This document shows positions 1 through 39,763 of a DNA stretch of 39,954 bases, piece by piece (the stretch's first letter is position 1; every line of letters begins with the position of its first letter). The stretch is from positions 1 through 39,954 of IMG/VR virus record IMGVR_UViG_2563366978_000009. One strand, given 5' to 3'. A program made the position numbers and the translations under genes. The notes under the pieces were generated by a model that saw only the letters and a list, made by a program, of their open reading frames with translations, did no database searches and was not told where the DNA came from. This DNA comes from a virus. Its lineage: Duplodnaviria; Heunggongvirae; Uroviricota; Caudoviricetes.

Positions 1-516
1 ATGAAATTAAAAAAATGTCTTCTGCCTGTGGCAATGTTAGCGTCATTTACTCTGGCAGGATGCCAGTCAAATGCTGATGATCATGCCGCCGATGTTTATC
101 AAACCGATCAACTGAATACCAAACAAGAAACTAAAACCGTTAATATTATTTCCATTCTTCCCGCAAAAGTTGCCGTAGACAACGCCCAAAATAAACGGAA
201 CGCACAAGCCTTCGGCGCGCTTATTGGCGCTGTCGCTGGCGGTGTTATCGGCCACAACGTCGGGTCTGGCAGCAATTCCGGAACGACAGCAGGTGCAGTT
301 GGCGGCGGAGCTGTTGGCGCAGCAGCGGGTTCTATGGTGAATGATAAAACCTTAGTGGAAGGTGTTTCTTTAACATATAAGGAAGGCACCAAAGTGTATA
401 CCTCCACCCAGGTGGGTAAAGAGTGCCAGTTTACGACAGGTTTAGCCGTTGTTATTACCACGACGTATAACGAAACGCGTATTCAGCCAAATACCAAATG
501 TCCTGAAAAGAGCTAA
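1..516 (+). CDS. yfgH: Outer-membrane lipoprotein, SlyB/Pcp-type glycine zipper (host flank, YfgH-like)
   Basis: Signal peptide with lipobox LAGC, DVY motif, then Gly/Ala-rich block GALIGAVAGGVIGHNVG. Length 171 aa and adjacency to a 179-aa ORF and a guaA 3' remnant fit the enterobacterial yfgH-yfgI-guaA locus. Symbol assigned by synteny and length, not by search. Confidence 0.55.
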   Translation: MKLKKCLLPVAMLASFTLAGCQSNADDHAADVYQTDQLNTKQETKTVNIISILPAKVAVDNAQNKRNAQAFGALIGAVAGGVIGHNVGSGSNSGTTAGAVGGGAVGAAAGSMVNDKTLVEGVSLTYKEGTKVYTSTQVGKECQFTTGLAVVITTTYNETRIQPNTKCPEKS

Positions 517-531
517 TAATCAGGAGGAGTC

Positions 532-1071
532 ATGAAGAAAGTTTTTCTTTGCGCCATCTTAGCCTCCTTAAGCTATCCGGCTATCGCCTCATCATTGCAG
601 GATCAACTCTCGGCTGTCGCAGAAGCGGAACAGCAAGGTAAAAATGAAGAGCAAAGGCAGCATGACGAATGGGTCGCGGAGCGCAACAGGGAAATCCAGC
701 AAGAGAAGCAACGTCGCGCAAACGCCCAGGCCGCGGCTAATAAAAGAGCGGCAACGGCAGCAGCGAATAAGAAAGCTCGTCAGGATAAACTGGACGCCGA
801 AGCCACTGCGGACAAAAAACGCGATCAAAGTTATGAAGATGAGCTACGTAGCTTAGAGATTCAGAAGCAAAAACTGGCGCTGGCGAAAGAAGAAGCCCGC
901 GTTAAGCGCGAAAACGAATTTATCGATCAGGAACTGAAGCACAAAGCTGCGCAAACCGATGTGGTGCAATCTGAAGCTGACGCAAACAGAAATATGACTG
1001 AAGGCGGTCGCGATCTGATGAAAAGCGTGGGTAAAGCAGAAGAGAACAAATCGGACAGCTGGTTTAACTAA
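532..1071 (+). CDS. yfgI: Secreted Lys/Ala/Gln-rich charged protein (host flank, YfgI-like)
   Basis: RBS AGGAGG 6 nt upstream; N-terminal signal peptide; 179 aa; followed by a bidirectional terminator. Symbol by synteny and length only. Confidence 0.5.
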   Translation: MKKVFLCAILASLSYPAIASSLQDQLSAVAEAEQQGKNEEQRQHDEWVAERNREIQQEKQRRANAQAAANKRAATAAANKKARQDKLDAEATADKKRDQSYEDELRSLEIQKQKLALAKEEARVKRENEFIDQELKHKAAQTDVVQSEADANRNMTEGGRDLMKSVGKAEENKSDSWFN

Positions 1072-2696: not shown

Positions 2697-3096
2697 CGTC
2701 TTTTCTCCCCGGAATTAACTCGCGTGGATTATCGGAACGGTGATAGAGCCAGATCCCAATTCGCACAGCGACGATTGCTGACACAAATGCACCGGCAGAG
2801 AAAACAATCCCTTTCTCGAAAGAATCCTGTGTGATTGTAGGGATCAGGCTGGCTATGCCGATAAGAATTGATGCTGCTGGTTTGTAGAATAGAAGTCCGC
2901 AGAGAAAGCTAAGCATCGACAAGAGCACGCGACGACGAATGGGATACTCTACCGCAGAGGTAACAAAAATCACCGCCCCAGCCAAAGACCCCAAAGCAAC
3001 CTCAGGAGGAACTCCTGCTATCACTGCCGCCAAAGAACTCATGCTAAGCCACTGATTTAAAGTTTCACTGGTTAGTTGAGCTGACATGTTTTCCAC
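2683..3096 (-). CDS. Lysis-cassette membrane protein (about 4 TM; holin or antiholin-like)
   Basis: 137 aa, four hydrophobic segments, overlaps the next gene by 14 nt. Function inferred from position only. Confidence 0.4.
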   Translation of the reverse strand: MENMSAQLTSETLNQWLSMSSLAAVIAGVPPEVALGSLAGAVIFVTSAVEYPIRRRVLLSMLSFLCGLLFYKPAASILIGIASLIPTITQDSFEKGIVFSAGAFVSAIVAVRIGIWLYHRSDNPRELIPGRKDDGNS

Positions 3097-3453
3097 CGTT
3101 TATATGCATAACTACCTCCTGAACAGTAAAGCATTACGCATGATAAACCATTTATGGTTTTTTGTTACCCAATATTACCAATCCAATTCGCGATGGTCAA
3201 AACATATCCACAGCGGTAAGTTTGAGTGTTTTCATTTCCAAAACTTTATACAATAATATATGCAGTCTGTTATTTTTACGCACAATAAAAACACGATACC
3301 AGCTATTTCGCCATAAATACAATTTCCTTTAATGCTGCCAACAGTGCCTGCAAAACATATAACAGAACACATAAATAACAGGCATAATATAGATTTAATA
3401 ATCTAAGTGCATATAAATATCATTTAAGAAGTTAAGAGCATTATTATAATAAC

Positions 3454-3483
3454 AATAACCCCGCTGTTTTATTCGGGGTTATT
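3454..3483 (-). terminator. Hairpin downstream of the tailspike gene
   Basis: AATAACCCCG / CGGGGTTATT 10-bp inverted repeat with 10-nt loop, 10 nt past the tailspike stop, in AT-rich DNA. Confidence 0.45.
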
Positions 3484-3493
3484 GCATTTATTA

Positions 3494-6469
3494 TTACATT
3501 GCCATTAATATAAACATAGCCAATTCGTCATAACGAATTCCGTAGCGTCCTCCTGCTTTTTTTACAAGAATCATATCTCCTGTTTTATATTGAGAATAAA
3601 TTTTCTCACCTGTATCAGGATCTGTGCTCTCTTCAGTTATCACCTCTTCATCCCATACGTCAGGCCATTCATCGTAACACCAAAAAGCATATTGCTCCGG
3701 GTTTAAACCATGCTTTCTAAGAATATCCCCTACGGTTTGAGCGCCAACGCCAAAATGATACCTGGACGACTCAATTCCTTTGTGATTAATTGAGTCATTA
3801 AATTTAAATTTATAGATGACTGACTTTATTTCAATAGCGGCATTACGCTCTGCATTAAGAATATCATATCTTGTTTTAAGAGTTTCATCTGACGTATTGA
3901 TTGACCCGGTTCCTGCATAGATAACAGAGCATCTGTTTGATGGCTGTCCAATAGCTTTAACATTATCATCAACAGGAGCTATTTTATTAGCATCTGCCAA
4001 CCACCAGTCTGTTCCATCAGCGTGACCGATTCTTACTCTTATCCCACTTCTAATATTTAAACTTCCAGTATTGCTCTGTAAATTACAATCTCCTGACGTT
4101 GGTCCAAGCAGTACAGTTTTACCAACACCACATACTACTCTGGCATTTCCTTTTTGTGATACGAGTCTTGACTCACCTCCTGACTGCTCAGGAAGAGATT
4201 TATGGTCTATAAATGCATCGCGGGGGTTAAATACACCGTCTCCAGAATTATATCTTCCTCCTGTATAGTTGTTAAATACAGGACCCCAGTCAACGCCATT
4301 GCCTTCAGAGCACCCGACCATTCTAAGCACTCGAGTATTCCCTGCTGCATATGGTAATGAGCTTGTTGATTGCCGGGAAGCTATCATACGTGCTCCATAA
4401 CCAATAGCATTACCACCATTTATAGTTACATATGCTTGCTGGCTTTCGAAATATGTACTGTAAAAGTTCATATTTCCACAGTCATGTAGATGAATAAGAA
4501 CATCATCCCATCCCTGAATGGTTCCTGCATGTACCTGTACACCGCGAACTGGTTCCCCTGAAACCTCCATACACTCTGATGGCCGGCTGAATGGCTGAGA
4601 CAGGTATTGCGATGTGGCAAGCAGATGTGTGTGGTGATACAGGCTGGTAATGTAGCAATCGAAAAATTGCGTTCCCGCCATACCAAAGTTATCTATGTCA
4701 TTTCGCCGTATAGTAGAACCTACTGTTGCCTCAGAAGCGTTAGACACTCCAGTAAATACTAACTTATCACCGGATACGGATAATCCTGAATAAGTGAAAT
4801 TCCTGCCTCCCGATCTTAAAACCCCGGACGTTTCGAAGGTGTGGCTTGATGACCATGGGATTTCGATAGTGCTGGACGTTACCGCTGTAATTCGGAATAC
4901 ATCATGGGCGCGGATCGAAACACCCTTGAATCCCTGGAATCTACAGTGATAATAGTTTTCATCCTCGCCCTGAGCGGCCAGCGTGCCAGATACAGGAATG
5001 TTCGTTTTTAAAAGTGCCGTCTTGCGCCAGTATCCAACCACCTGCAAATTGCGGTATTCATTGCCAAAAGACGCACGTGACCAAATACCTACATCCCACT
5101 CATCGCCAAGACCGGTATTTGCAATGTCTTTATAACCATCCAGCCCATTGAAATATGGAACAATACGAAAGTTCTCAAGGCGAACACATCCTGTCTCTGG
5201 CATCAATATTGCGGCAGAGAATGGTTTAAGCGTGGCTCTTGTAGCCCCATTAGCATCACCGTTAGTAAAATCCAATAAATCATATGATGACGCAGGTGCC
5301 GTTGTTGTATACGGGTCTTCGGAAGATGGATTAGAAACCACACCACCACTAACATCCATATTAGAAACACAATCTACAGTATATTTTTTATTTCCTACAC
5401 CGTACATCAGGAATGTGGTCCCTGTGGTAATATCAGGAGCAAATGTTGCAGTATATCCAGAGACCCATTTGCCCACACCAAGACCAATTATCCCACCACC
5501 AGAAACAGGTGTTAACGTATCCGTTATTACATACGCATTATCAGTACCATAAATAACCTTTCCTGTGTTAATGGCAGCTTGCCACGCGGCCCAGTCTATT
5601 GACTGAGATAATGAGTCAACAAAAGGATATAAGGATTTTGCTTCAGAAATTGAAGAAAACCTCTCAGATAATGGATGATATTTCCCATCCCCAATTGCTC
5701 CGAATTGTTTTACATTTAAGAAAAGAGCATTGTTTTCATGCTGAGTTATAGTTACAGCCCCGGCAAATGGCTGCCTTACACCAATTAATGCATCACCTTT
5801 TCCTTCTCCTGCGCTAGATAATTGCAGAAGAACATCTGCGGCACTGCCAGAAGGCACAGGTACACCTATAGGTTTACCATTGACGATACCAATGACAGTT
5901 TCTTCCAGTAAATGAACTGGAGGAAGTGGTTCAATAAAATTATCTGGAACCCGTAATGTCCTGTTAATATTCACATTAACAATATTATCAACATAATTCT
6001 TTGTAGCTGCATCTTGAGGCTTGGAAGGATCGCGCAAATTGCGGATGTAATTATTCAAAGCATCGTAATAGTTTGCCACAAATGATGGTTTGCGCAGCGC
6101 CAGGCTAAACCAACTGCGGACTTGCTGTATCAGCATCGTCAGCTTATCTAACGCGTCTTCATGCACCTCAGCGAAAAACTTTCCCTGATTTCGCAGATCA
6201 GTTTCCTGCGTAACCGGGAGCTCTCGTGATATAGAAATCTGATAACCGTTAGCTAACGCCTTCGACAGAATTACATTACCGCCATTATATCCACCAGCCC
6301 CAGTGACAGTGTAATCAGTATCAAGAGCCAGCACAGCGATATTTTCGTCAAGGTCAACCACCTGCACTACCAGATCAGATTCCTTGAAAACCCTAAAGGT
6401 ATAAGGAAATGAAGTCGTAACGCCATTGCCTGTGTATTCGTTGTGGTCAACTTCGGTTGAGACCGTCAT
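3494..6469 (-). CDS. Tailspike / tail fibre: T7 gp17-like N-terminal adaptor, central receptor-binding region, C-terminal S74-type intramolecular chaperone
   Basis: 991 aa; GGAG RBS. N-terminus (EYTGNGVTTSFPYTF...LDTDYTV) resembles the T7 tail-fibre N-domain. C-terminal ~150 aa has the SDETLKT block, like the Ser-Lys autocleavage motif of endosialidase-type chaperone domains. Gly/Ser/Thr/Asn-rich middle. Confidence 0.75.
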   Translation of the reverse strand: MTVSTEVDHNEYTGNGVTTSFPYTFRVFKESDLVVQVVDLDENIAVLALDTDYTVTGAGGYNGGNVILSKALANGYQISISRELPVTQETDLRNQGKFFAEVHEDALDKLTMLIQQVRSWFSLALRKPSFVANYYDALNNYIRNLRDPSKPQDAATKNYVDNIVNVNINRTLRVPDNFIEPLPPVHLLEETVIGIVNGKPIGVPVPSGSAADVLLQLSSAGEGKGDALIGVRQPFAGAVTITQHENNALFLNVKQFGAIGDGKYHPLSERFSSISEAKSLYPFVDSLSQSIDWAAWQAAINTGKVIYGTDNAYVITDTLTPVSGGGIIGLGVGKWVSGYTATFAPDITTGTTFLMYGVGNKKYTVDCVSNMDVSGGVVSNPSSEDPYTTTAPASSYDLLDFTNGDANGATRATLKPFSAAILMPETGCVRLENFRIVPYFNGLDGYKDIANTGLGDEWDVGIWSRASFGNEYRNLQVVGYWRKTALLKTNIPVSGTLAAQGEDENYYHCRFQGFKGVSIRAHDVFRITAVTSSTIEIPWSSSHTFETSGVLRSGGRNFTYSGLSVSGDKLVFTGVSNASEATVGSTIRRNDIDNFGMAGTQFFDCYITSLYHHTHLLATSQYLSQPFSRPSECMEVSGEPVRGVQVHAGTIQGWDDVLIHLHDCGNMNFYSTYFESQQAYVTINGGNAIGYGARMIASRQSTSSLPYAAGNTRVLRMVGCSEGNGVDWGPVFNNYTGGRYNSGDGVFNPRDAFIDHKSLPEQSGGESRLVSQKGNARVVCGVGKTVLLGPTSGDCNLQSNTGSLNIRSGIRVRIGHADGTDWWLADANKIAPVDDNVKAIGQPSNRCSVIYAGTGSINTSDETLKTRYDILNAERNAAIEIKSVIYKFKFNDSINHKGIESSRYHFGVGAQTVGDILRKHGLNPEQYAFWCYDEWPDVWDEEVITEESTDPDTGEKIYSQYKTGDMILVKKAGGRYGIRYDELAMFILMAM

Positions 6470-6645: not shown

Positions 6646-6665
6646 ATTGCATGGAGAAGATTAAG

Positions 6666-6923
6666 ATGCAGCAGTATCACTATCCACTGGAAGACGGATT
6701 TACCGAAAGGATTCACACGCCGGGAGGCGTCAGGTCACTGGTGGAGGGATCGCATTTGATGAAATTACTCCGGGATCTCGATAAGGATGGATTTAATGTC
6801 GATGGCCCACTTGCCGAACTGACTGCACTGATTAACTACGTCACCAGCTCACAGATGTCTATGCGGGATCTGCAAACACATCTCGACTATTGTGCCGAAC
6901 AATTACGAAAACAAACCCGGTAA
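6666..6923 (+). CDS. Small antirepressor-like protein, paralog of the C-terminal domain of the AntA-type protein at 8074..8730
   Basis: Start at 6666 with GGAG RBS (ATG at 6651 lacks an RBS and abuts the LexA box). About 40 percent identity by eye to the C-terminal 75 aa of the 8074..8730 product (shared PL, IH.P.GV, LM.LL, DG..V.G..AEL, RD.QTH). Confidence 0.6.
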   Translation: MQQYHYPLEDGFTERIHTPGGVRSLVEGSHLMKLLRDLDKDGFNVDGPLAELTALINYVTSSQMSMRDLQTHLDYCAEQLRKQTR

Positions 6924-6930
6924 ATTTAAA

Positions 6931-6946
6931 GGCCGCAAGAGCGGCC
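6931..6946. terminator. Hairpin between convergent genes
   Basis: GGCCGC AAGA GCGGCC; shared by the + gene ending at 6923 and the - gene ending at 6946. Confidence 0.45.
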
Positions 6947-7674
6947 TATCGTTTCGCTTTGTGCTCATCCCAGCACGTTTTGCACCATGCCATTAAGCCG
7001 TCCGCATTTTGATTATTAGGGTAAAAGCTGGTTCGTTTTCTGCGGACATTACAAATTGGGCACCACTTCATATGGCGTGTATTCTTTGGGCCATCGAGAC
7101 ACCTTGCACACCACTTAGTCAATCCATCTGGATTTTTTGACGATTTCCTGAATTTTTCATATGGAAGGTTTATTCTGCATCGCAAGCACTGCTTGCTACC
7201 ACTTGAAACTCTGTTAGCTGATTCTTCTTTTGGCGGCGATACAGAAGGTATTCTTGCTGGCTCTGATACTGCCTGAGGTGCTTTTTTAGATGACTGAGAC
7301 GATATGTCACCACCAGGGAATCTTCCATGATATGCCGGACGCGTTGACACTCCAGGTGGAAGCTCAGCTGTAAACGGCTTTGACTGAATCAGTTGCCTCT
7401 CTTTTGCTAACTCCTGCTGTTTATAATATGTCTGGATTACCGCACTATCATAAGCAGGAGGTGCGGAAATATTAGGCGCATTACCTCCAGTTTTTTGAAA
7501 CTGAGTAGAGGTGTGTTCTATCACCTGTGTACGATTAATCGTTATCTCCCCATCTTCGGTCTTTATCGTTTTGTTATGATTAACGACCGTACGATCAGAG
7601 ATCTTAGTCTTGTTCTGGTTGATAACGTAAATAATCACCGCAACCACACCAACAACTATCCAGAAAACTTCCAT
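6946..7674 (-). CDS. Membrane-anchored protein with Pro/Ser-rich linker and C-terminal triple zinc-ribbon-like repeats
   Basis: N-terminal TM (MEVFWIVVGVVAVIIYVI); C-terminus has CLRC, DGLTKWCARC, KWCPIC, DGLMAWCKTC. No family recognised. Confidence 0.6.
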   Translation of the reverse strand: MEVFWIVVGVVAVIIYVINQNKTKISDRTVVNHNKTIKTEDGEITINRTQVIEHTSTQFQKTGGNAPNISAPPAYDSAVIQTYYKQQELAKERQLIQSKPFTAELPPGVSTRPAYHGRFPGGDISSQSSKKAPQAVSEPARIPSVSPPKEESANRVSSGSKQCLRCRINLPYEKFRKSSKNPDGLTKWCARCLDGPKNTRHMKWCPICNVRRKRTSFYPNNQNADGLMAWCKTCWDEHKAKR

Positions 7675-7694
7675 TTCTTTTCCTCACAATAACA

Positions 7695-7709
7695 TTACCT
7701 TAAAGGTAA
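7695..7709. promoter_or_regulatory. Operator palindrome TTACC-N5-GGTAA (perfect)
   Basis: TTACCTTAAAGGTAA, followed by a degenerate copy cTTGCTTTCAGGTGA at 7713..7727. Confidence 0.55.
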
Positions 7710-7787
7710 TATCTTGCTTTCAGGTGATCAAGCGTTAAACCCAATAAACCAAATACGGTTGATTTTAATATTTCTTCGCGTTTATAA

Positions 7788-7802
7788 TTACCTTTGCGGT
7801 AA
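7788..7802. promoter_or_regulatory. Operator palindrome TTACC-N5-GGTAA (perfect), overlapping a TATAAT -10
   Basis: TTTATAATTACCTTTGCGGTAA; TATAAT at 7783..7788. Confidence 0.55.
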
Positions 7803-7892
7803 ATTTACATCGCACTCCTCTTGTGCCATAGTAATCGGGCACTGGCAAAATCCAGTGCCGGGATTGGTCTCCCGGATTACTAAGTGGCGCAT

Positions 7893-7915
7893 ACCACGCC
7901 AGACGTGGTTTTTTT
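7893..7915 (+). terminator. Intrinsic terminator or attenuator inside the long leader of the AntA-type gene
   Basis: ACCACG CCAGA CGTGGT followed by seven T, preceded by another 8-bp hairpin at 7837..7860, about 160 nt upstream of the ATG at 8074. Confidence 0.5.
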
Positions 7916-8073
7916 ATGCGTATAGCACAGTCATGCCAGAATTATGGTGGGCTGAATGGGGGTCCGAAAGGACGCCGGTACCACTTAGGCCGGTAAGACC
8001 AACTCCGTTCAGTTCACCACCATCTGATTGGTCTCAGCGGTGGTGATGTAATTCGCTAAGTGGAGACGCCATC

Positions 8074-8730
8074 ATGAACGCTCAACTCATCCCCGTATTC
8101 AACGGCACTATATCTAACGAAACAGCCCTACTTTGTAATGCCCGCGATCTGCACGCTTTTTTAGGTGTTAAAAAGGTGTTTGCAGCATGGATTACAAATC
8201 GCATATCAGAATACGAATTCATTGAAAATCAAGACTATATTTTGCTTTCCAATTTGGGAAAGCAAACATCTGGTAGAGGCGGCCACAACCGCAAAGAGTA
8301 CCACCTCACCCTTGATACAGCCAAAGAGCTGGCGATGGTCGAGCGTAACGAAAAAGGTCGCCAGGTGCGACGCTACTTCATTGAATGCGAGAAACGTTTA
8401 AGACAACAAGAAACAAAAGTGGAGAAGGTCTTGTCAGGCTTCATGCCCGCCATTATGGAGGCGATCAAGCTGGAAGACAAAAAAGAATACAGCGCCCCAC
8501 TGAAGCCCGGCTACCGCAGTCTGATTCATTCTCCGTCTGGTGTTCTCGGCCTGACGGAGAACTCACTGCTGATGAATCTGCTGAACCAGTTACAGGACGA
8601 CGGGCACGACGTATCGGGCGCGGCGGCGGAGCTGACCACCATGTTCTGCTACATCGTCGGTGTGAGCAAATGCCTGCGTGATATCCAGACCCACGCGGAG
8701 TACATCAACGACAAGGCAGGGTTCTTCTGA
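8074..8730 (+). CDS. Antirepressor, AntA-type N-terminal domain
   Basis: 218 aa; N-terminal block LH.FLGV..F..W...R...YEF.E..DY...LT.D.AKELAM.ERNEKG...R.YFIECE as recalled for AntA/AntB; GGAG RBS; C-terminal domain paralogous to 6666..6923. Confidence 0.65.
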
Positions 8731-8801
8731 CGGCGGCGGCACAGGGATGTGCCTTTAAATAATTCTGTACAGATTGCAGACTGTGGGTGAATAGCGTACT
8801 A

Positions 8802-8816
8802 TTACCTCAAGGGTAA
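8802..8816. promoter_or_regulatory. Operator palindrome TTACC-N5-GGTAA (perfect)
   Basis: TTACCTCAAGGGTAA, about 60 nt upstream of the small ORF at 8877. Confidence 0.55.
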
Positions 8817-8876
8817 ACGGATTGGTTTCATTTTTATTAATCCGTGTAATGAACTTATGAGATATGAGGTAATGTC

Positions 8877-9056
8877 ATGCGAAACGAAAAATTGCAGATG
8901 CGTAGAGCGCAAGCTGCCGCAAGACGTTCTTTCAATGGAAGCGTAGAGTACGTAAAAGTTACTATGACAAAAGATCACGCAAGTCGCGTATCCCGCGCTT
9001 TCTTTGATTCTCGTAACAATAAGGAAAATTATGAGTTCGTCTGCGTCGCAGAATGA
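8877..9056 (+). CDS. Small basic ORF (59 aa) overlapping the YafO-like gene start; candidate antitoxin
   Basis: GAGG RBS 7 nt upstream; below the 60-aa track cutoff; 26-nt overlap with the next gene in another frame. No family recognised. Confidence 0.3.
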   Translation: MRNEKLQMRRAQAAARRSFNGSVEYVKVTMTKDHASRVSRAFFDSRNNKENYEFVCVAE

Positions 9057-9576
9057 TAAAAATCAAATTGTCAGATATAAGGGTCGAGTGTTGCATACGC
9101 AAAATTTCTCGGCCCTTTGTGCATCTGATCTTGAGCTGAAGAAAGTATCTGATGCCTTTACCCAGTATTGGAAAACGGGATACCATCCATCTCTTGGTAA
9201 AGATGCTGCATTTGCTCGTCCGACAGAAATGCTTAAACTAAATGTCAGGCATACTCATGTCGATAACCAAGACTATATTCCAGAAGATAGTGATAAAAAA
9301 CACACTGGTAAAAAATCATCTTGGGATGCATGGAAAAATATAGCGTCTGTACAAGTAAAATGCATACCAACAAGTGATTGCTTTTTAGTTTATTCGGTAA
9401 ATCACAATCGTGATGCGCTGGTTATGTTTTTTGTTGACGCAGATGCTCACAACATAACTGAGCAAGAAGAGTTTAAAGAGGAAGCAATCACTATCAGTTA
9501 TCAATTCTTTGAGAAAACAAAAACAGAACCAATGCCTTTAGAAGAAGATCTTTTTTCTGATAAATGGAAGGAATAG
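9031..9576 (+). CDS. YafO-family toxin-like protein
   Basis: ATG at 9031 with AAGGA RBS (track ORF starts at an upstream TTG). Blocks SDAFTQYWKTG, LGKDAAFA, VRHTHVDNQDYIP, CFLVYSVNHNRDALVMFFVDA parallel YafO as recalled (FISYKRDG, FGRDALY, VAHIHLANENNPFP, AHLVYCQGAFDEQAWLLIAIL). Low GC. Confidence 0.5.
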   Translation: MSSSASQNDKNQIVRYKGRVLHTQNFSALCASDLELKKVSDAFTQYWKTGYHPSLGKDAAFARPTEMLKLNVRHTHVDNQDYIPEDSDKKHTGKKSSWDAWKNIASVQVKCIPTSDCFLVYSVNHNRDALVMFFVDADAHNITEQEEFKEEAITISYQFFEKTKTEPMPLEEDLFSDKWKE

Positions 9577-9596
9577 CCCGCAGCGCGGGCTTTTTT
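9576..9596 (+). terminator. Rho-independent terminator
   Basis: GCCCGC AGC GCGGGC followed by six T, directly after the stop at 9574..9576. Confidence 0.7.
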
Positions 9597-9668
9597 GTGG
9601 ACGAAACAAAAGTCAGTGCTACACTCATTGACGCCACATTGAGGTGGCTTATAGATGGAAATTTCACA

Positions 9669-9830
9669 ATGAAAAAAGCATTTGCTGCACTGTTCGTTTT
9701 GTTGTCTCTGGTAGCTTCAACTCAGGCCTTTGCCGGTCGTTGTCAGCACGACAGCGATACTGCTGCTGACGGCTCCCGCTGCGGTGGGCGTTCTGCGGAT
9801 TCCCGTCCGGGCGGCGGTGGCATTCGTTAA
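9669..9830 (+). CDS. Small secreted Cys-containing peptide (53 aa)
   Basis: Signal peptide MKKAFAALFVLLSLVASTQAFA then a Gly/Arg/Ser-rich 31-aa tail with two Cys; higher GC than its neighbours. Could be spurious. Confidence 0.35.
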   Translation: MKKAFAALFVLLSLVASTQAFAGRCQHDSDTAADGSRCGGRSADSRPGGGGIR

Positions 9831-26477: not shown

Positions 26478-26554
26478 GTGGCATTAGCTCAGTTGGACAG
26501 AGCAACCGCCTTCTAAGCGGTTGGTCGCAGGTTCGAATCCTGCATGCCACGCCA
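26478..26554 (+). tRNA. tRNA-Arg (anticodon UCU), phage-encoded
   Basis: Hand-folded cloverleaf: acceptor GUGGCAU/AUGCCAC, D-arm GCUC-AGUUGGACA-GAGC, anticodon stem ACCGC/GCGGU with loop CUUCUAA, T-arm GCAGG-UUCGAAU-CCUGC, discriminator G, encoded CCA. Confidence 0.9.
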
Positions 26555-36357: not shown

Positions 36358-36657
36358 ATGAACGTTAATCAGCAGAAAAATCTTCAAAAAATCATGCTGG
36401 CATTCGACAAGGACTATCGCCTGTCAGAACAGCTATATGACCGACAAGTTGAACTGATTGAGAGTATCCGGCTTCATCAACTGGCATCAACTTTCGACGT
36501 TGTAACAGTTAAAGGCGTTCGCCAGGAAGTACTGGAGGCCGCTAAAGACAGCCCTGAGTTCGAAGAACTAATGGATGCCTACCGGCGCGAGGCAATGGCA
36601 ATTATCGCCCGCTGGGATCTGGCTGATCAGCTTGATGGGCAGAGGGACGCGGCATGA
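36358..36657 (+). CDS. Hypothetical early protein
   Basis: Start MNVNQQ with GGGAGGG RBS; ATGA-type overlap with the next gene. Confidence 0.5.
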   Translation: MNVNQQKNLQKIMLAFDKDYRLSEQLYDRQVELIESIRLHQLASTFDVVTVKGVRQEVLEAAKDSPEFEELMDAYRREAMAIIARWDLADQLDGQRDAA

Positions 36658-37475
36658 AACCGGGAATTTATTTCGACATCAGCAACGAAGACTACCACGC
36701 CGGTGACGGCGTGAGTAAGTCGCAACTGGACATGGTTGCCAAGAATCCGGCGCTTCTTAAATGGGTTCAGGCAGCACCAGAAGACGAAGAGAAAAAGTCT
36801 GCACTGGATATGGGAACCGCATTGCACTGTCTGCTTCTGGAGCCTGGAGAGTTCGACAAACGCTTCATTGTTTCACCAAAGTTCGATCGTCGGACGAAAC
36901 AAGGTAAAGCTGACGAAGAAGCATTTCTTCGTGATGTAGCGGATATGGGGATTGCGTTACTTGATGCCGAGCAGTGGCGGAAACTTGAGCTGATGCGTGA
37001 TAGCGCAATGGCTCACCCGGCGGCACGCTGGATGCTGGAAGCACCTGGTTACTGCGAAGCATCAATGTACTGGAACGATGAAGAGACTGGTGAGTTGTGC
37101 CGAATTCGTCCAGACAAATGGCTGAACGAGCACAACGTGATCGTCGACGTGAAAAAGGTTGCAGATATGGACCGTTTTGCACGCCACATCGAGGAATTCC
37201 GCTACCACGTGCAGGACGCAATGTACCGCGAAGGCGCAATGAGGGTTACTGGTCAGCCGCATGGTTTTTTCTTTCTTGCCGTGAGCGAAAGCATTGATTG
37301 TGGTCGGTATCCGGTACGCGTGTTCGAGCTGGATGCGCAGGATGTCGATGCCGGGCACGCTCTGTTCCGCCGGGATCTGAATACCTATCACGAATGCCGC
37401 ATCAATGATGAATGGGGCGGTGTGGAAATCATTAAACGCCCTGAGTGGGCACGCAAACAGGATATGTACATATGA
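36654..37475 (+). CDS. PD-(D/E)xK exonuclease, RecE/exonuclease VIII C-domain-like
   Basis: 273 aa; GTALHCLLLEP and IVDVKKV blocks consistent with a PD-(D/E)xK fold; directly upstream of the annealing-protein gene. Confidence 0.55.
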   Translation: MKPGIYFDISNEDYHAGDGVSKSQLDMVAKNPALLKWVQAAPEDEEKKSALDMGTALHCLLLEPGEFDKRFIVSPKFDRRTKQGKADEEAFLRDVADMGIALLDAEQWRKLELMRDSAMAHPAARWMLEAPGYCEASMYWNDEETGELCRIRPDKWLNEHNVIVDVKKVADMDRFARHIEEFRYHVQDAMYREGAMRVTGQPHGFFFLAVSESIDCGRYPVRVFELDAQDVDAGHALFRRDLNTYHECRINDEWGGVEIIKRPEWARKQDMYI

Positions 37476-38413
37476 GCAACGACATCGCAAACATCAACGC
37501 ACCAGTAGACACAGCAATCGCTGGAACTGCTGCAACTATTTTCAGCCCAGACGGCTTGAACCAACTGATGAAATTCGCCGAGGTAATGGCGCAAAGCCGC
37601 GTAACGGTACCGGCGCACCTCGCCGGGAAACCAGCTGATTGCATGGCCGTGGCAATGCAGGCTGCGCAGTGGGGAATGAACCCGTTTGCCGTGGCTCAGA
37701 AAACCCATGTTGTGAACGGCACGCTAGGTTATGAAGCCCAATTAGTAAACGCAGTTATCTCAACGATGTCGCCAACAAAAGATCGCATCAACTACGAGTG
37801 GTTCGGGCCGTGGGAACGCGTGATCGGTAAGTTTGTTGAGAAAACATCCAAAAACGGCAATCCATATATCGCACCAGGCTGGACTCTAAAAGACGAAGAA
37901 GGCTGCGGTGTTCGCGTATGGGCAACCATGAAGGGCGAGGATCAACCTCGAGTGCTTGAGTTAATGCTGTCTCAAGCACAGGTAAGAAACTCCACACTTT
38001 GGGCCAGTGATCCGAAACAACAACTCGCATACCTTGCGACAAAACGCTGGTCTCGCCTGCACTGTCCTGACGTAATCATGGGCGTCTACACCCCAGACGA
38101 ATTACAGGAAACGGCACCGCGCGTTGAGCGAGACATTACTCCGCAAACGACCACTGCTGCGGGAATGAACAGTCTGATCAACGCTAAACCAGCGAAAAAG
38201 CCTGATGAGCAAACGCGTAAATCGGACAGCCGTGATCCAGAAGAAATGCTGATGGCCTTTACCAGCGCAGCGATGAATTACAGCACTGTCTCCGAACTGG
38301 ATAAGGCTTACAAATACATTGCACAAAAACTTTCAGATGATGACGAACTGCTGGCAAAAGCAACCGACGTTTACAGCGTTCGTCGGGAAGAATTAAACGA
38401 AACATCTATGTAA
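37472..38413 (+). CDS. Single-strand annealing protein, Bet/RecT family
   Basis: Start MSNDIANINAP; blocks AAQWGMNPFAVAQKTHVVNG and ERDITP parallel lambda Bet (ANQYGLNPWTKEIY...NG, ERDITP) as recalled. Confidence 0.65.
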   Translation: MSNDIANINAPVDTAIAGTAATIFSPDGLNQLMKFAEVMAQSRVTVPAHLAGKPADCMAVAMQAAQWGMNPFAVAQKTHVVNGTLGYEAQLVNAVISTMSPTKDRINYEWFGPWERVIGKFVEKTSKNGNPYIAPGWTLKDEEGCGVRVWATMKGEDQPRVLELMLSQAQVRNSTLWASDPKQQLAYLATKRWSRLHCPDVIMGVYTPDELQETAPRVERDITPQTTTAAGMNSLINAKPAKKPDEQTRKSDSRDPEEMLMAFTSAAMNYSTVSELDKAYKYIAQKLSDDDELLAKATDVYSVRREELNETSM

Positions 38414-38462
38414 CCACCACCGCGGCGCCACGTGCGCCGCACTGCAACCAAGAGAGGTATTC

Positions 38463-38711
38463 ATGAAAGGTGCATTAGGTAAGAAAGAACTCCTGGCGGT
38501 GGTGCCACTGTCATGGAGCACTATCGACCGTATGGAGCGCGCAGGGGAATTTCCTAAACGCTGGTATATCACCGATAAACGCTGCGCATGGAACCGTGAT
38601 GAAGTTGAGCGTTGGCTTGATGAACGTCAGGCAGCAAGCCCGGCAGAGTTCCAGGGTAAAAAGCCTCCTGTTCAGCAACGTGTATATCGTCCCGTGAGCA
38701 ACGCTGCATGA
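38463..38711 (+). CDS. AlpA-family DNA-binding protein (excisionase-like regulator)
   Basis: 82 aa; LLAVVPLSWSTIDRMERAGEFPKRWYITDKRCAWNRDEVERWL fits the AlpA pattern. Confidence 0.6.
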   Translation: MKGALGKKELLAVVPLSWSTIDRMERAGEFPKRWYITDKRCAWNRDEVERWLDERQAASPAEFQGKKPPVQQRVYRPVSNAA

Positions 38712-38820
38712 GTGCGCTGCTAAGGCACTGGAGCAAATGGTCAGGATGGTACTTATTCCTGGCCTCTGTTTCAGCATGGCTTTATCTGCTGGCATTAATT
38801 TTCAGAGAGGGTTGGATTAA

Positions 38821-39120
38821 GTGAGAAAGTTAAGCCGACTTGAAAAATATCACATGAATAAGGTTTCAATGCGCAGTCCGTCAAAGATTGTCGCCGTTAC
38901 TCCTGCGGCGATAGAGATCGAAAAACGCGCGATTGAAAGAGAGAAAAAAGGGCAATTCCGCATTGCCGCTCACCTTTGGCTTCAGTGTATGGATGTTGCT
39001 TCTGGTGATGTTGAACGTGCAAGGATCGCGGTTCGCAGGGACCAATGTATCACAAAAGGTAACGGCCTTCGCCGTGGCGACTATAGCGGCATAGGATGTT
39101 GTGGGGTGGTTTATGACTAA
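38821..39120 (+). CDS. Hypothetical protein
   Basis: Track ORF starts at GTG 38821; alternative ATG at 38854; no family recognised. Confidence 0.35.
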   Translation: MRKLSRLEKYHMNKVSMRSPSKIVAVTPAAIEIEKRAIEREKKGQFRIAAHLWLQCMDVASGDVERARIAVRRDQCITKGNGLRRGDYSGIGCCGVVYD

Positions 39121-39763
39121 GAAATACACACTAATCTATGCAGATCCACCCTGGGTATACCGGGACAAAGCCGCAGATGGTAATCGCGGTGCCGGTTTTA
39201 AATATCCGGTTATGAGTGTGCTGGATATCTGCCGCCTTCCTGTGTGGGATTTGGCCGATGAAAACTGTCTGTTGGCCATGTGGTGGGTGCCAACACAACC
39301 ACTCGAAGCACTAAAAGTTGTTGAAGCCTGGGGATTCCGTCTGATGACGATGAAGGGCTTCACGTGGATAAAATGTGGTAGTCGACAACCAGATAAACTG
39401 GTTATGGGTATGGGACACATGACTCGCGCCAATAGTGAAGATTGCCTGTTTGCGGTAAAGGGAAAACTACCTACGCGCATTAATGCAGGGATCGTTCAGT
39501 CATTTACCGCACCGCGGCTTGAGCATTCAAGAAAGCCAGATATCGTTCGTGAAAAACTTGTGCAATTATTAGGCGATGTTTCTCGCATTGAACTGTTCGC
39601 CCGCCAGTCGTCTCATGGCTTCGATGTTTGGGGTAATCAGTGCGAAGACCCAGCCGTGCAACTACACCCAGGATACGCGTTGGATATTGGCGGATTAACA
39701 AATGCATTCAGCAATGCTCCGCTGTCACCAACAGACAACCAGGGGAGGGAGCGTGCAGCATGA
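39113..39763 (+). CDS. DNA N6-adenine methyltransferase, MT-A70 family
   Basis: Start MTKKYTLIYADPPW with GGTGG RBS; DPPW catalytic motif near the N-terminus. Confidence 0.7.
   Translation: MTKKYTLIYADPPWVYRDKAADGNRGAGFKYPVMSVLDICRLPVWDLADENCLLAMWWVPTQPLEALKVVEAWGFRLMTMKGFTWIKCGSRQPDKLVMGMGHMTRANSEDCLFAVKGKLPTRINAGIVQSFTAPRLEHSRKPDIVREKLVQLLGDVSRIELFARQSSHGFDVWGNQCEDPAVQLHPGYALDIGGLTNAFSNAPLSPTDNQGRERAA

Follow-up and report, generated by a model that had tools for sequence, protein, structure and literature searches.

A prophage-encoded tailspike of Escherichia coli probably directed at the K13/K20/K23 group 2 capsule

Introduction

What does the tailspike encoded at positions 3494..6469 (minus strand) recognise on its host, and how is the protein built? 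The gene lies in a stretch of viral DNA of 39,954 nucleotides, referred to here as the window, where it forms one unbroken open reading frame (ORF) of 991 amino acids (aa) with an ATG start and a stop codon at 3494..3496. Its DNA matches at 99-99.6% genes annotated as “tail fiber domain-containing protein” in 11 complete Escherichia coli genomes, and the full-length product matches PHROG 1171, “tail spike protein,” from end to end. A scan for promoters and terminators around the gene gave no signal above shuffled expectation. The original prediction, made from the letters of the window, had described a T7-type N-terminal anchor, a middle specific for a surface glycan and a C-terminal chaperone domain. 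Tailspikes in which a beta-helix lies between an anchor and a chaperone domain are well known from textbooks as receptor-binding proteins; the architecture is ordinary, and it is the predicted specificity that is new.

The Prophage

The gene is probably that of the only tailspike of a temperate podovirus of the epsilon15/phiV10 kind (Uetakevirus-like), which is integrated as an E. coli prophage beside yfgI. This prophage carries a T7-like portal (PF12236) and an epsilon15 GP7 capsid protein (PF20911), and it is syntenic with the annotated YDC107 prophage, whose copy includes a T7 gp14-family core protein. Both the anchor and the virion module of the genus Uetakevirus were thus found. Sibling prophages at the same integration site bear endosialidase spikes, so that a capsule is a usual target in this phage group. 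The neighbouring ORFs (6651-9830) make up an antirepressor-type region, which contains no glycan-modifying genes and gave no hint, by way of lysogenic conversion, of the receptor.

The N-Terminal Anchor

The first 90 residues (6200..6469, minus strand) are predicted to form a virion-binding beta-sandwich of the T7 gp17 / Carin-1 Dpo31 D1 type. In the AF2 monomer model, pLDDT exceeds 90 over aa 8-85. Foldseek places this domain closest to 8ck1_B (E=1e-11, 44% identity), and phmmer likewise finds 28lx/8ck1 (E=3.7e-25). The N-terminus of T7 gp17 is recovered by Foldseek as well (7ey9/7boz/7ey7, E 1e-5..1e-4), and the in-situ gp17 fold is matched in 7ey9, 7boz, 7ey7, and 9jz0, all with probability 1.0. 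By hhalign, the alignment to the T7-type profile reaches 96-97% probability (E 1e-9..1e-10) over 141-149 columns, and one protein, P0162, matches both this anchor's group and the T7-type group. The T7-type anchor foreseen at the outset therefore stands with profile and fold methods, the only ones to which the kinship is visible: BLASTP against T7 gp17 gave no match, and the Pfam threshold of PF03906 was missed (11.2 bits vs 25.2, E=0.29), the alignment being collinear over profile positions 10-151 of 157. Judged by these profiles and models, the anchor (aa 1-~165) shares distant ancestry with the N-terminus of T7 gp17, and it presumably docks the tailspike trimer onto the phage's T7-like tail.

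The beta-sandwich is followed by a helical neck (aa 91-165; 5975..6199, minus strand), with a helix at aa 100-125 in the model. This is also where Uetakevirus DNA identity ends: the 78-87% identity to the spikes of phiV10, TL-2011b, PAS61, and E15-like phages breaks off around nt 470-527 of the gene. The spikes of epsilon15 (gp20) and phiV10 thus share the anchor (first ~480 nt) and the virion type, but beyond ~aa 165 no relationship remains, their receptor-binding domains being directed at O-antigens. A lineage-specific linker (aa 166-221; 5807..5974, minus strand), of low confidence in the monomer model and missing from the YZ1 and P22-type fusions, then leads to the exchangeable module. Dpo31 of Cobetia phage Carin-1 (28LX, 8CK1) has the same succession of D1 beta-sandwich (~44% identical), helical neck, beta-helix depolymerase, and C-terminal domain, the last of which is self-cleaved (~18 kDa); its beta-helix is however unrelated, and its substrate is a marine exopolysaccharide (PMC13317679).

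The Stalk and the C-Terminal Chaperone

At the other end of the protein, the segment before the cleavage site (aa 760-859; 3893..4192, minus strand) is presumably an interdigitated trimeric stalk. Structural models were made of monomers only, and pLDDT is low in them over aa 761-810. Pfam End_tail_spike, the endosialidase stalk end, matches aa 825-859, and the stalk aligns to the pre-cleavage segments of 7y5s, 3gw6, and 4uw8.

The last 132 residues (aa 860-991; 3497..3892, minus strand) correspond to an intramolecular chaperone of the S74 type. Pfam PF13884 covers aa 860-922 with 21.9 bits, just below its cut-off of 22.0. The family profile run against the PDB is far clearer (3gw6 E=3e-36, 3gud 2e-35, 4uw8 1e-30), and agrees with phmmer (7y5s 6e-23, 3gw6 9e-14) and Foldseek (3gud, TMt 0.74). 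S860 (codon 3890-3892, minus strand) aligns with the alanine of the 3gw6 S911A construct and K865 (codon 3875-3877), five residues on, with K916; S911 and K916 are what we take to be the Ser-Lys dyad of the endoNF cleavage site (numbering after Schulz et al. 2010). The SD..LK motif is common to 7y5s (SDARLK) and T5 pb1. Both the Peptidase S74/CIMCD sequence signature and the Ser-Lys dyad are thus present, in keeping with the chaperone domain first proposed.

By analogy with these proteins, autocleavage is predicted at T859|S860 by the S860/K865 dyad. The computed masses of the products are 92.7 kDa for the spike and 15.3 kDa for the 132-aa fragment. As in endosialidase K1F, T5 pb1, and phi29/GA-1 gp12, the chaperone domains of three chains would nucleate the folding of the trimer, after which each would cut itself off at S860 to leave the 92.7-kDa mature spike.

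A close parallel is endoNF of coliphage K1F (3GW6), in which a T7-type anchor is followed by a domain that degrades a group 2 capsule, by a stalk, and by a chaperone that is cut off at a Ser-Lys dyad, a cut that is predicted here as well. EndoNF differs in that its catalytic domain is a beta-propeller sialidase rather than a right-handed beta-helix and that it acts on polysialic acid (K1), where the Ribf-Kdo polymer is the proposed substrate of the present spike; K1F is moreover a lytic T7-like phage, whereas a temperate prophage is found here.

The Beta-Helix Domain

Between linker and stalk lies the receptor-binding and putative depolymerase domain (aa 222-759; 4193..5806, minus strand). Its first element is the junction motif KGDALIGVRQPF; a cap comes next, and then a right-handed parallel beta-helix, which ends near aa 760 in the predicted structure. 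A beta-helical or beta-propeller glycanase had been expected in the middle of the protein, and the predicted fold is a beta-helix, although the boundaries of 150..830 first given to that middle have to be redrawn slightly: the module begins at aa 222, the helix ends at ~760, the stalk spans 760-859, and the cut falls at T859|S860. The original prediction was to be abandoned if the middle showed no beta-helix or glycanase fold or the C-terminus no chaperone match, and neither outcome was observed.

The cap (aa 251-313) has as its best sequence-detectable relatives phi297 gp61 (E 1e-16) and LKA1 gp49 (E 1e-13). These Pseudomonas proteins (4RU5 and 4RU4), which are also among the top fold matches, resemble the tailspike only in the cap and the general fold, and they act on the P. 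aeruginosa O-specific antigen. The body of the helix has no sequence kin among solved structures, and no CAZy-type Pfam match was found in the tailspike. The domain corresponds to PHROG 33794, “unknown function,” with >1300 representatives at 50% identity. When the central domain was used in a word-indexed protein search, nothing below 99% identity was retrieved, in several hundred clusters, and diversity for modelling was drawn from an exhaustive search of representatives.

Might such a helix be a non-catalytic adhesin, or modify its glycan (for example as a deacetylase) while leaving the backbone uncut? Its nearest structural neighbours are overwhelmingly phage-spike enzymes, which speaks against an adhesin. 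So does the conservation, in at least 90% of 90 diverse family members, of three carboxylates and several Arg/His residues; the positions conserved in the family are D459, D523, E635, E675, R435, R520, H612, and R642. Podoviruses infecting encapsulated hosts, furthermore, generally require depolymerisation. We regard this alternative as very unlikely, and the residues D459, E635, and E675, together with R435, R520, H612, and R642, as candidate active-site and carboxylate-binding residues of an enzyme.

An Exchangeable Unit

The middle of the protein had also been called the most swappable part of the phage, and this is borne out by the finding of aa 222-991 on three other chassis. Kayfunavirus YZ1 has it with 72% identity over aa 217-991, on a T7-type anchor. 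P22-like prophages carry aa 222-991 at 99% on P22-type head-binding domains. Vectrevirus KMB14 (K1-5-like) encodes a 42% homologue without anchor, directly downstream of a K5 lyase. By sequence comparison, beta-helix, stalk, and S74 chaperone together are a horizontally exchangeable unit. YZ1 gp35 (YP_009798557), which belongs to the receptor-binding protein (RBP) subtype of Pas et al. 2023, is like the present spike in helix, stalk, and chaperone; it differs in its genuine T7-type anchor, which has no pairwise similarity to this N-terminus, and in coming from a lytic phage. The K5 lyase spikes (KflA 2X3H; phage E1004 9VVR; the first spike of KMB14) also combine a beta-helix, an E. coli group 2 capsule as target, and an S74 chaperone.

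O-Antigen or Capsule?

Could the tailspike be specific for the O-antigen, cleaving or binding one O-polysaccharide or a shared motif, as do epsilon15 gp20, phiV10, and the spikes of P22/Sf6/HK620? Uetakevirus and P22-like chassis classically bear O-antigen spikes (PMC10408124), the linker and cap (aa 221-313) resemble those of the O-antigen spikes of Sf6, phi297, and LKA1, and one wzy type occurs in at least five carriers of the domain, yet in just 80 of 5426 genomes. Carriers of domains at least 99% identical nevertheless have unrelated O clusters: that of YDC107 is an O102 cluster, with rfbBDAC, in contrast to a glycosyltransferase-only cluster, and HS4, E22, SBF22, 702/18, and XH992 share another wzy, probably O153. 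In HS4, the O-unit flippase is truncated by IS1. Pas et al. had already recorded the RBP subtype in four O groups (O102, O6, O1, and O153) and suggested a K antigen; because it was found in several O serogroups, the subtype was left unexplained (PMC10408124). One receptor-binding domain subtype is hence associated with differing O genotypes, and the capsule locus described below accounts for 11 carriers with both O types, which leaves O-antigen specificity highly improbable. O102 was tried as the common receptor and rejected, YDC107 being the only carrier in the O102 wzy list and the HS4 cluster being different.

The kps region 2 of YDC107 contains an O-acetyltransferase and a 1114-aa “HAD family hydrolase” whose gene matches krkA of the K13 reference strain NCTC9022 (WP_001336789) at 97% identity. 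KrkA alone builds the backbone of the K13/K20/K23 capsules (PMC12887879). Among complete genomes, a set to which the window's own genome does not belong, krkA is rare (65/5426, 1.2%). It is present in 11 of the 15 carriers of the domain vs 54 of 5411 other genomes (Fisher p = 4e-19, odds ratio 273), a significance inflated by kinship, as the genomes are phylogenetically related and the p-value overstates their independence. Judged by krkA, the carriers share the corresponding kps region 2, with the exception of XH992, LS45, OZ547246, and 23CRST013, in which megablast detected no krkA. Stretches examined for a capsule locus in HS4, XH992, and 23CRST013 were rearranged or unrelated, and the capsule loci of the four exceptions were not located.

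Differing O clusters and krkA enrichment, taken together, therefore make the spike probably a Ribf-Kdo capsule depolymerase. On the strength of this genome association, it is likely to degrade the K13/K20/K23 group 2 capsule rather than to be an O-antigen spike. The surface glycan of the original prediction is retained, with the carrier genomes pointing to a group 2 capsule (K13/K20/K23) more than to an O-antigen.

Shared ancestry or ecology might also have produced the association as a side effect, with some other surface structure common to these ExPEC lineages as the true receptor: another exopolysaccharide, or a protein to which the phage gains access once it has bound non-specifically. 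Clinical ExPEC isolates, perhaps clonal relatives of one another, are numerous among the carriers, and the four carriers without megablast-detectable krkA fit such a scenario. The 11 krkA-positive carriers are, on the other hand, a varied set: their krkA genes fall into two alleles (≥99% and 97% classes), they have at least two O-types, and the domain comes on two phage chassis inserted at several sites, a diversity that, with the rarity of krkA and the position of the beta-helix homologue beside the K5 capsule lyase in the K1-5-like phage, makes a mere by-product unlikely. Capsules of both the K20 and the K5 type were degraded by phiK20, a phage of the older literature, a pairing that matches the K5 lyase of KMB14 plus its homologue of the beta-helix domain.

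A Possible Kdo/Ribose Glycanase

If the spike is a capsule depolymerase, as we prefer, the beta-helix would bind and depolymerise the ->3)-beta-D-Ribf-(1->7)-beta-D-Kdop-(2-> polymer of K13/K20/K23, a substrate deduced from the carrier genomes. Depolymerisation would let the phage tunnel through the capsule and would set its host range. Cleavage could be that of a glycoside hydrolase, at the beta-Kdo ketosidic or the beta-ribofuranosidic bond, or that of an eliminase.

To our knowledge, the phage “Kdo/ribose glycanases” of the 1980s-90s were described as activities only. The literature searched held no sequence-defined depolymerase for the K13/K20/K23 capsule, and a search for the hosts of KMB14/LF31P3 and for the 1986 “Kdo glycanase” report returned nothing usable. 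It may be suggested, quite tentatively, that the PHROG 33794 domain is the first sequence-defined “Kdo/ribose glycanase”: an endo-glycosidase for Ribf-Kdo group 2 capsules (K13/K20/K23, with K20 or K95 for the KMB14-type relative) and the founder of a new beta-helix glycoside hydrolase/eliminase family using a D459/E635/E675 triad.

Concluding Remarks

A link to invasive disease that ranks with the strongest of any E. coli K type has been reported for K13_K23 (PMC13171606). If the proposed specificity is true, the tailspike gene would provide a reagent for K13/K20/K23 typing or capsule stripping, as well as a swap-in module for T7-like, P22-like, and epsilon15-like phages and for tailocins against such strains. 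It would also open a way into the enzymology by which Kdo/ribofuranose polymers are cleaved.

The tailspike gene and its prophage setting

The tailspike is encoded on the minus strand, at 3494..6469, by an open reading frame (ORF) of 991 codons. A chance ORF can be set aside: the product aligns over its full length with PHROG 1171 ("tail spike protein"), 11 complete E. coli chromosomes have annotated genes of 99.0-99.6% DNA identity to it, and the ORF sits within a prophage. The surrounding prophage genes lie on the minus strand, with holins, a GH19 endolysin, and a spanin downstream of the tailspike gene, and tail, capsid, and portal genes upstream. The window opens within the host genes yfgH and yfgI, which places a prophage end near position 1100-1290. 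The virion module resembles that of epsilon15, with a GP7 capsid protein (PF20911) and a T7-type portal (PF12236), and the syntenic prophage copy in strain YDC107 includes a T7 gp14-family core protein. The G+C content of the tailspike gene is about 0.42, falling to 0.36 around the 3′ end, both below the prophage average; the low value at the 3′ end is consistent with a foreign origin of the module. Over 3001-4000, which covers the spike 3′ end and a spacer of about 400 nt before the holin gene, G+C is 0.356 vs. about 0.49 for the prophage.

A tRNA-Arg gene (anticodon TCT) lies on the plus strand at 26478-26554, within the prophage between the portal and terminase regions, and the YDC107 copy has a tRNA-Arg at the equivalent place. 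The 3.4 kb interval separating the spike from the tail genes (6651-9830) holds an antirepressor (Ant/BRO-N) region and small ORFs on both strands, with no glycan-modifying (lysogenic conversion) gene found in it; the equivalent gap in YDC107 is under 1 kb and has other gene content. The early region (36654-39763, plus strand) encodes a PDDEXK-like nuclease (DUF3799) and RecT recombination pair, and an MT-A70 family DNA methyltransferase.

Domain architecture

The original prediction of a T7-type anchor, a glycanase-type middle, and a self-cleaving chaperone is confirmed from profiles, models, and alignments, with one qualification at the N-terminus. The first ~480 nt of the gene are 78-87% identical to spikes of phiV10, TL-2011b, PAS61, E15-like Salmonella phages, and Enterobacter phage Tyrion, and the DNA likeness ends there. 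With the Pfam model for the T7 tail-fibre N-terminus the score is only 11 bits (cut-off 25), and BLASTP of the N-terminus against T7 gp17 gave zero matches. On the other hand, profile-profile alignment of a 15-sequence anchor profile with a 4-sequence T7-type profile covered 141-149 columns, at a probability of 96-97% and E-values of 1e-9 to 1e-10. By sequence, the N-terminus of P0162, a protein from the representative library, is a natural intermediate joining the two groups, matching both the epsilon15-type anchor (E = 2.5e-9) and that of T7 gp17 (E = 3.4e-5). The monomeric AlphaFold model of the anchor (18-sequence alignment) has a beta-sandwich at aa 8-85 (pLDDT >90) and a helix at aa 100-125, and is unreliable elsewhere up to aa 241. 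Its top Foldseek match is the Carin-1 tail fibre 8ck1 (E = 1e-11), followed by in-situ T7 gp17 N-termini and those of Kp9, PhiM1, and E1004 (E 1e-5 to 1e-4). Carin-1 Dpo31 touches the virion through the 8ck1-type N-terminal domain and cleaves off its own C-terminal domain (PMC13317679). "T7-type" thus holds as remote homology and fold, and not as Pfam membership.

An exhaustive search with the central domain gave 1377 representatives at E≤1e-3, 161 of them at E≤1e-30, and none of those found had a Pfam assignment for the body of the domain; sequence-level relatives in the PDB are limited to the helix cap, aa 251-313, and these matches point to no catalytic family. The AlphaFold model of aa 221-991, built on a 90-sequence alignment, has a mean pLDDT of 89 and a pTM of 0.77, being weak only at aa 761-810. 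Eleven residues are at least 90% conserved in 90 diverse family members: R435, Y446, D459, W481, Q512, R520, D523, H612, E635, R642, and E675.

The C-terminus carries the Pfam endosialidase stalk model (aa 825-859) and then S74 (aa 860-922), the latter at 21.9 bits for a cut-off of 22. Against solved chaperone domains the family profile matches endosialidase K1F (E = 3e-36), GA-1 gp12 (2e-35), and T5 pb1 (1e-30). In the residue-level alignments, S860 pairs with the Ser that was mutated in the 3GW6 construct and K865 with the Lys that partners this Ser, and an S-D-x-x-L-K motif is common to the tailspike, 7y5s, and T5 pb1. The spike would fold with the aid of this chaperone and then shed it, with computed cleavage products of 92.7 and 15.3 kDa.

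A unit exchanged between phages

That the middle is swappable and sets host range is directly supported. The exchangeable unit runs from aa 222 ("KGDALIGVRQPF") to the C-terminus and is present in three other settings. P22-like prophages at argW have it following a P22-type head-binding domain (99% identity), the lytic Kayfunavirus YZ1 has it following a genuine T7-type anchor (72%), and in Vectrevirus KMB14 it forms a second spike that lacks an anchor (42%). At the chromosomal site of the present prophage, its epsilon15-like siblings have other spikes, GH28-related or endosialidase.

Among the E. coli genome matches H353-H375 are close epsilon15-like prophages, several of them beside yfgI, with "glycosyl hydrolase family 28-related" spikes or an [quoted passage not shown] (CUVET20-PYO2); one type (TB4019/TB4328) has an acyltransferase beside the spike. 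Four genomes, NZ_CP067235.1 (SBF22), NZ_CP074701.1, NZ_CP186931.1, and NZ_OZ547246.1, hold two copies of the receptor-binding module, so that two different prophages of the same specificity co-reside; SBF22 encodes one spike of the epsilon15 type (991 aa) and one of the P22 type (901 aa; P0088).

The K1-5-like KMB14 (L004, 502-4669) encodes a 632-aa K5 lyase, its first spike (2x3h, E = 0), and the 727-aa homologue of the receptor-binding and chaperone unit. This pairing is reminiscent of phiK20, reported active on K20 and K5 capsules, and of phiK5, reported active on K5 and K95, and is a hint that the target is capsular.

From O-antigen to capsule as the probable target

Which glycan, then, would the spike recognize? 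O-antigen was the expected one and was tested before capsule, among carriers of the receptor-binding domain (15 of the complete E. coli genomes are carriers). YDC107 has an O102 cluster, and of the O102 genomes listed (60 of 107) it was the only carrier. The cluster of HS4 is unrelated to O102, and its flippase is cut by IS1; HS4 may make no O-antigen, leaving capsule as its outermost glycan. The truncated flippase gene lies beside gnd, with IS1 copies on its flanks (HS4 stretch L010, 13276-15665). The HS4 wzy type, found in 80 genomes (one a strain named CE-O153H30), is common to the carriers HS4, E22, SBF22, 702/18, and XH992. Given this difference between YDC107 and HS4, O102 was rejected as a common receptor. 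The YZ1 receptor-binding protein subtype is known from prophages of O102, O6, O1, and O153 strains, and a K antigen or similar shared receptor has been proposed for it (Pas et al., 2023).

Region 2 of the group 2 kps locus in YDC107 consists of just two genes, one for a 1114-aa "HAD family hydrolase" and one for a CatB-like O-acetyltransferase. The former is 97% identical to WP_001336789 of the K13 reference strain NCTC9022. WP_001336789 is KrkA, which, as work published in 2026 showed, polymerizes on its own the K13 capsule, ->3)-beta-D-Ribf-(1->7)-beta-D-Kdop-(2-> (PMC12887879); K20 and K23 differ from K13 in O-acetylation only (PMC12887879; PMC13171606). Fully enumerated from two listings, the krkA-positive set comprises 65 of 5426 complete genomes. 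The gene is present in 11/15 carriers vs. 54/5411 non-carriers (odds ratio 273; one-sided Fisher p = 4e-19, a value inflated by relatedness). Eight positive carriers have the epsilon15-type spike (YDC107, EC21Z-151, EC21Z-144, SBF22, HS4, E22, 702/18, and DLL7555) and three the P22-type (CH10508, CS5L, and UPEC_U013). Because these 11 are spread over the two krkA alleles, the two O genotypes, the two phage chassis, and several sites of insertion, the association is not that of one clone.

By megablast, krkA is absent from four of the 15 carriers. Two of the four, XH992 and 23CRST013, showed no kps locus in those stretches of their genomes that were read; they may have lost the capsule or have another K locus. 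These two strains also have a similar IS-rich island with a YadA-like adhesin, PhoX, ugpB, and sit genes (L016/L019 and L017, respectively).

The best-supported function of the tailspike is that of a depolymerase for K13/K20/K23-type capsule; we infer its catalysis, bond specificity, trimer geometry, and processing alike. It is one more protein of a well-known class, and its interest lies in what is new, a specific and testable substrate prediction.
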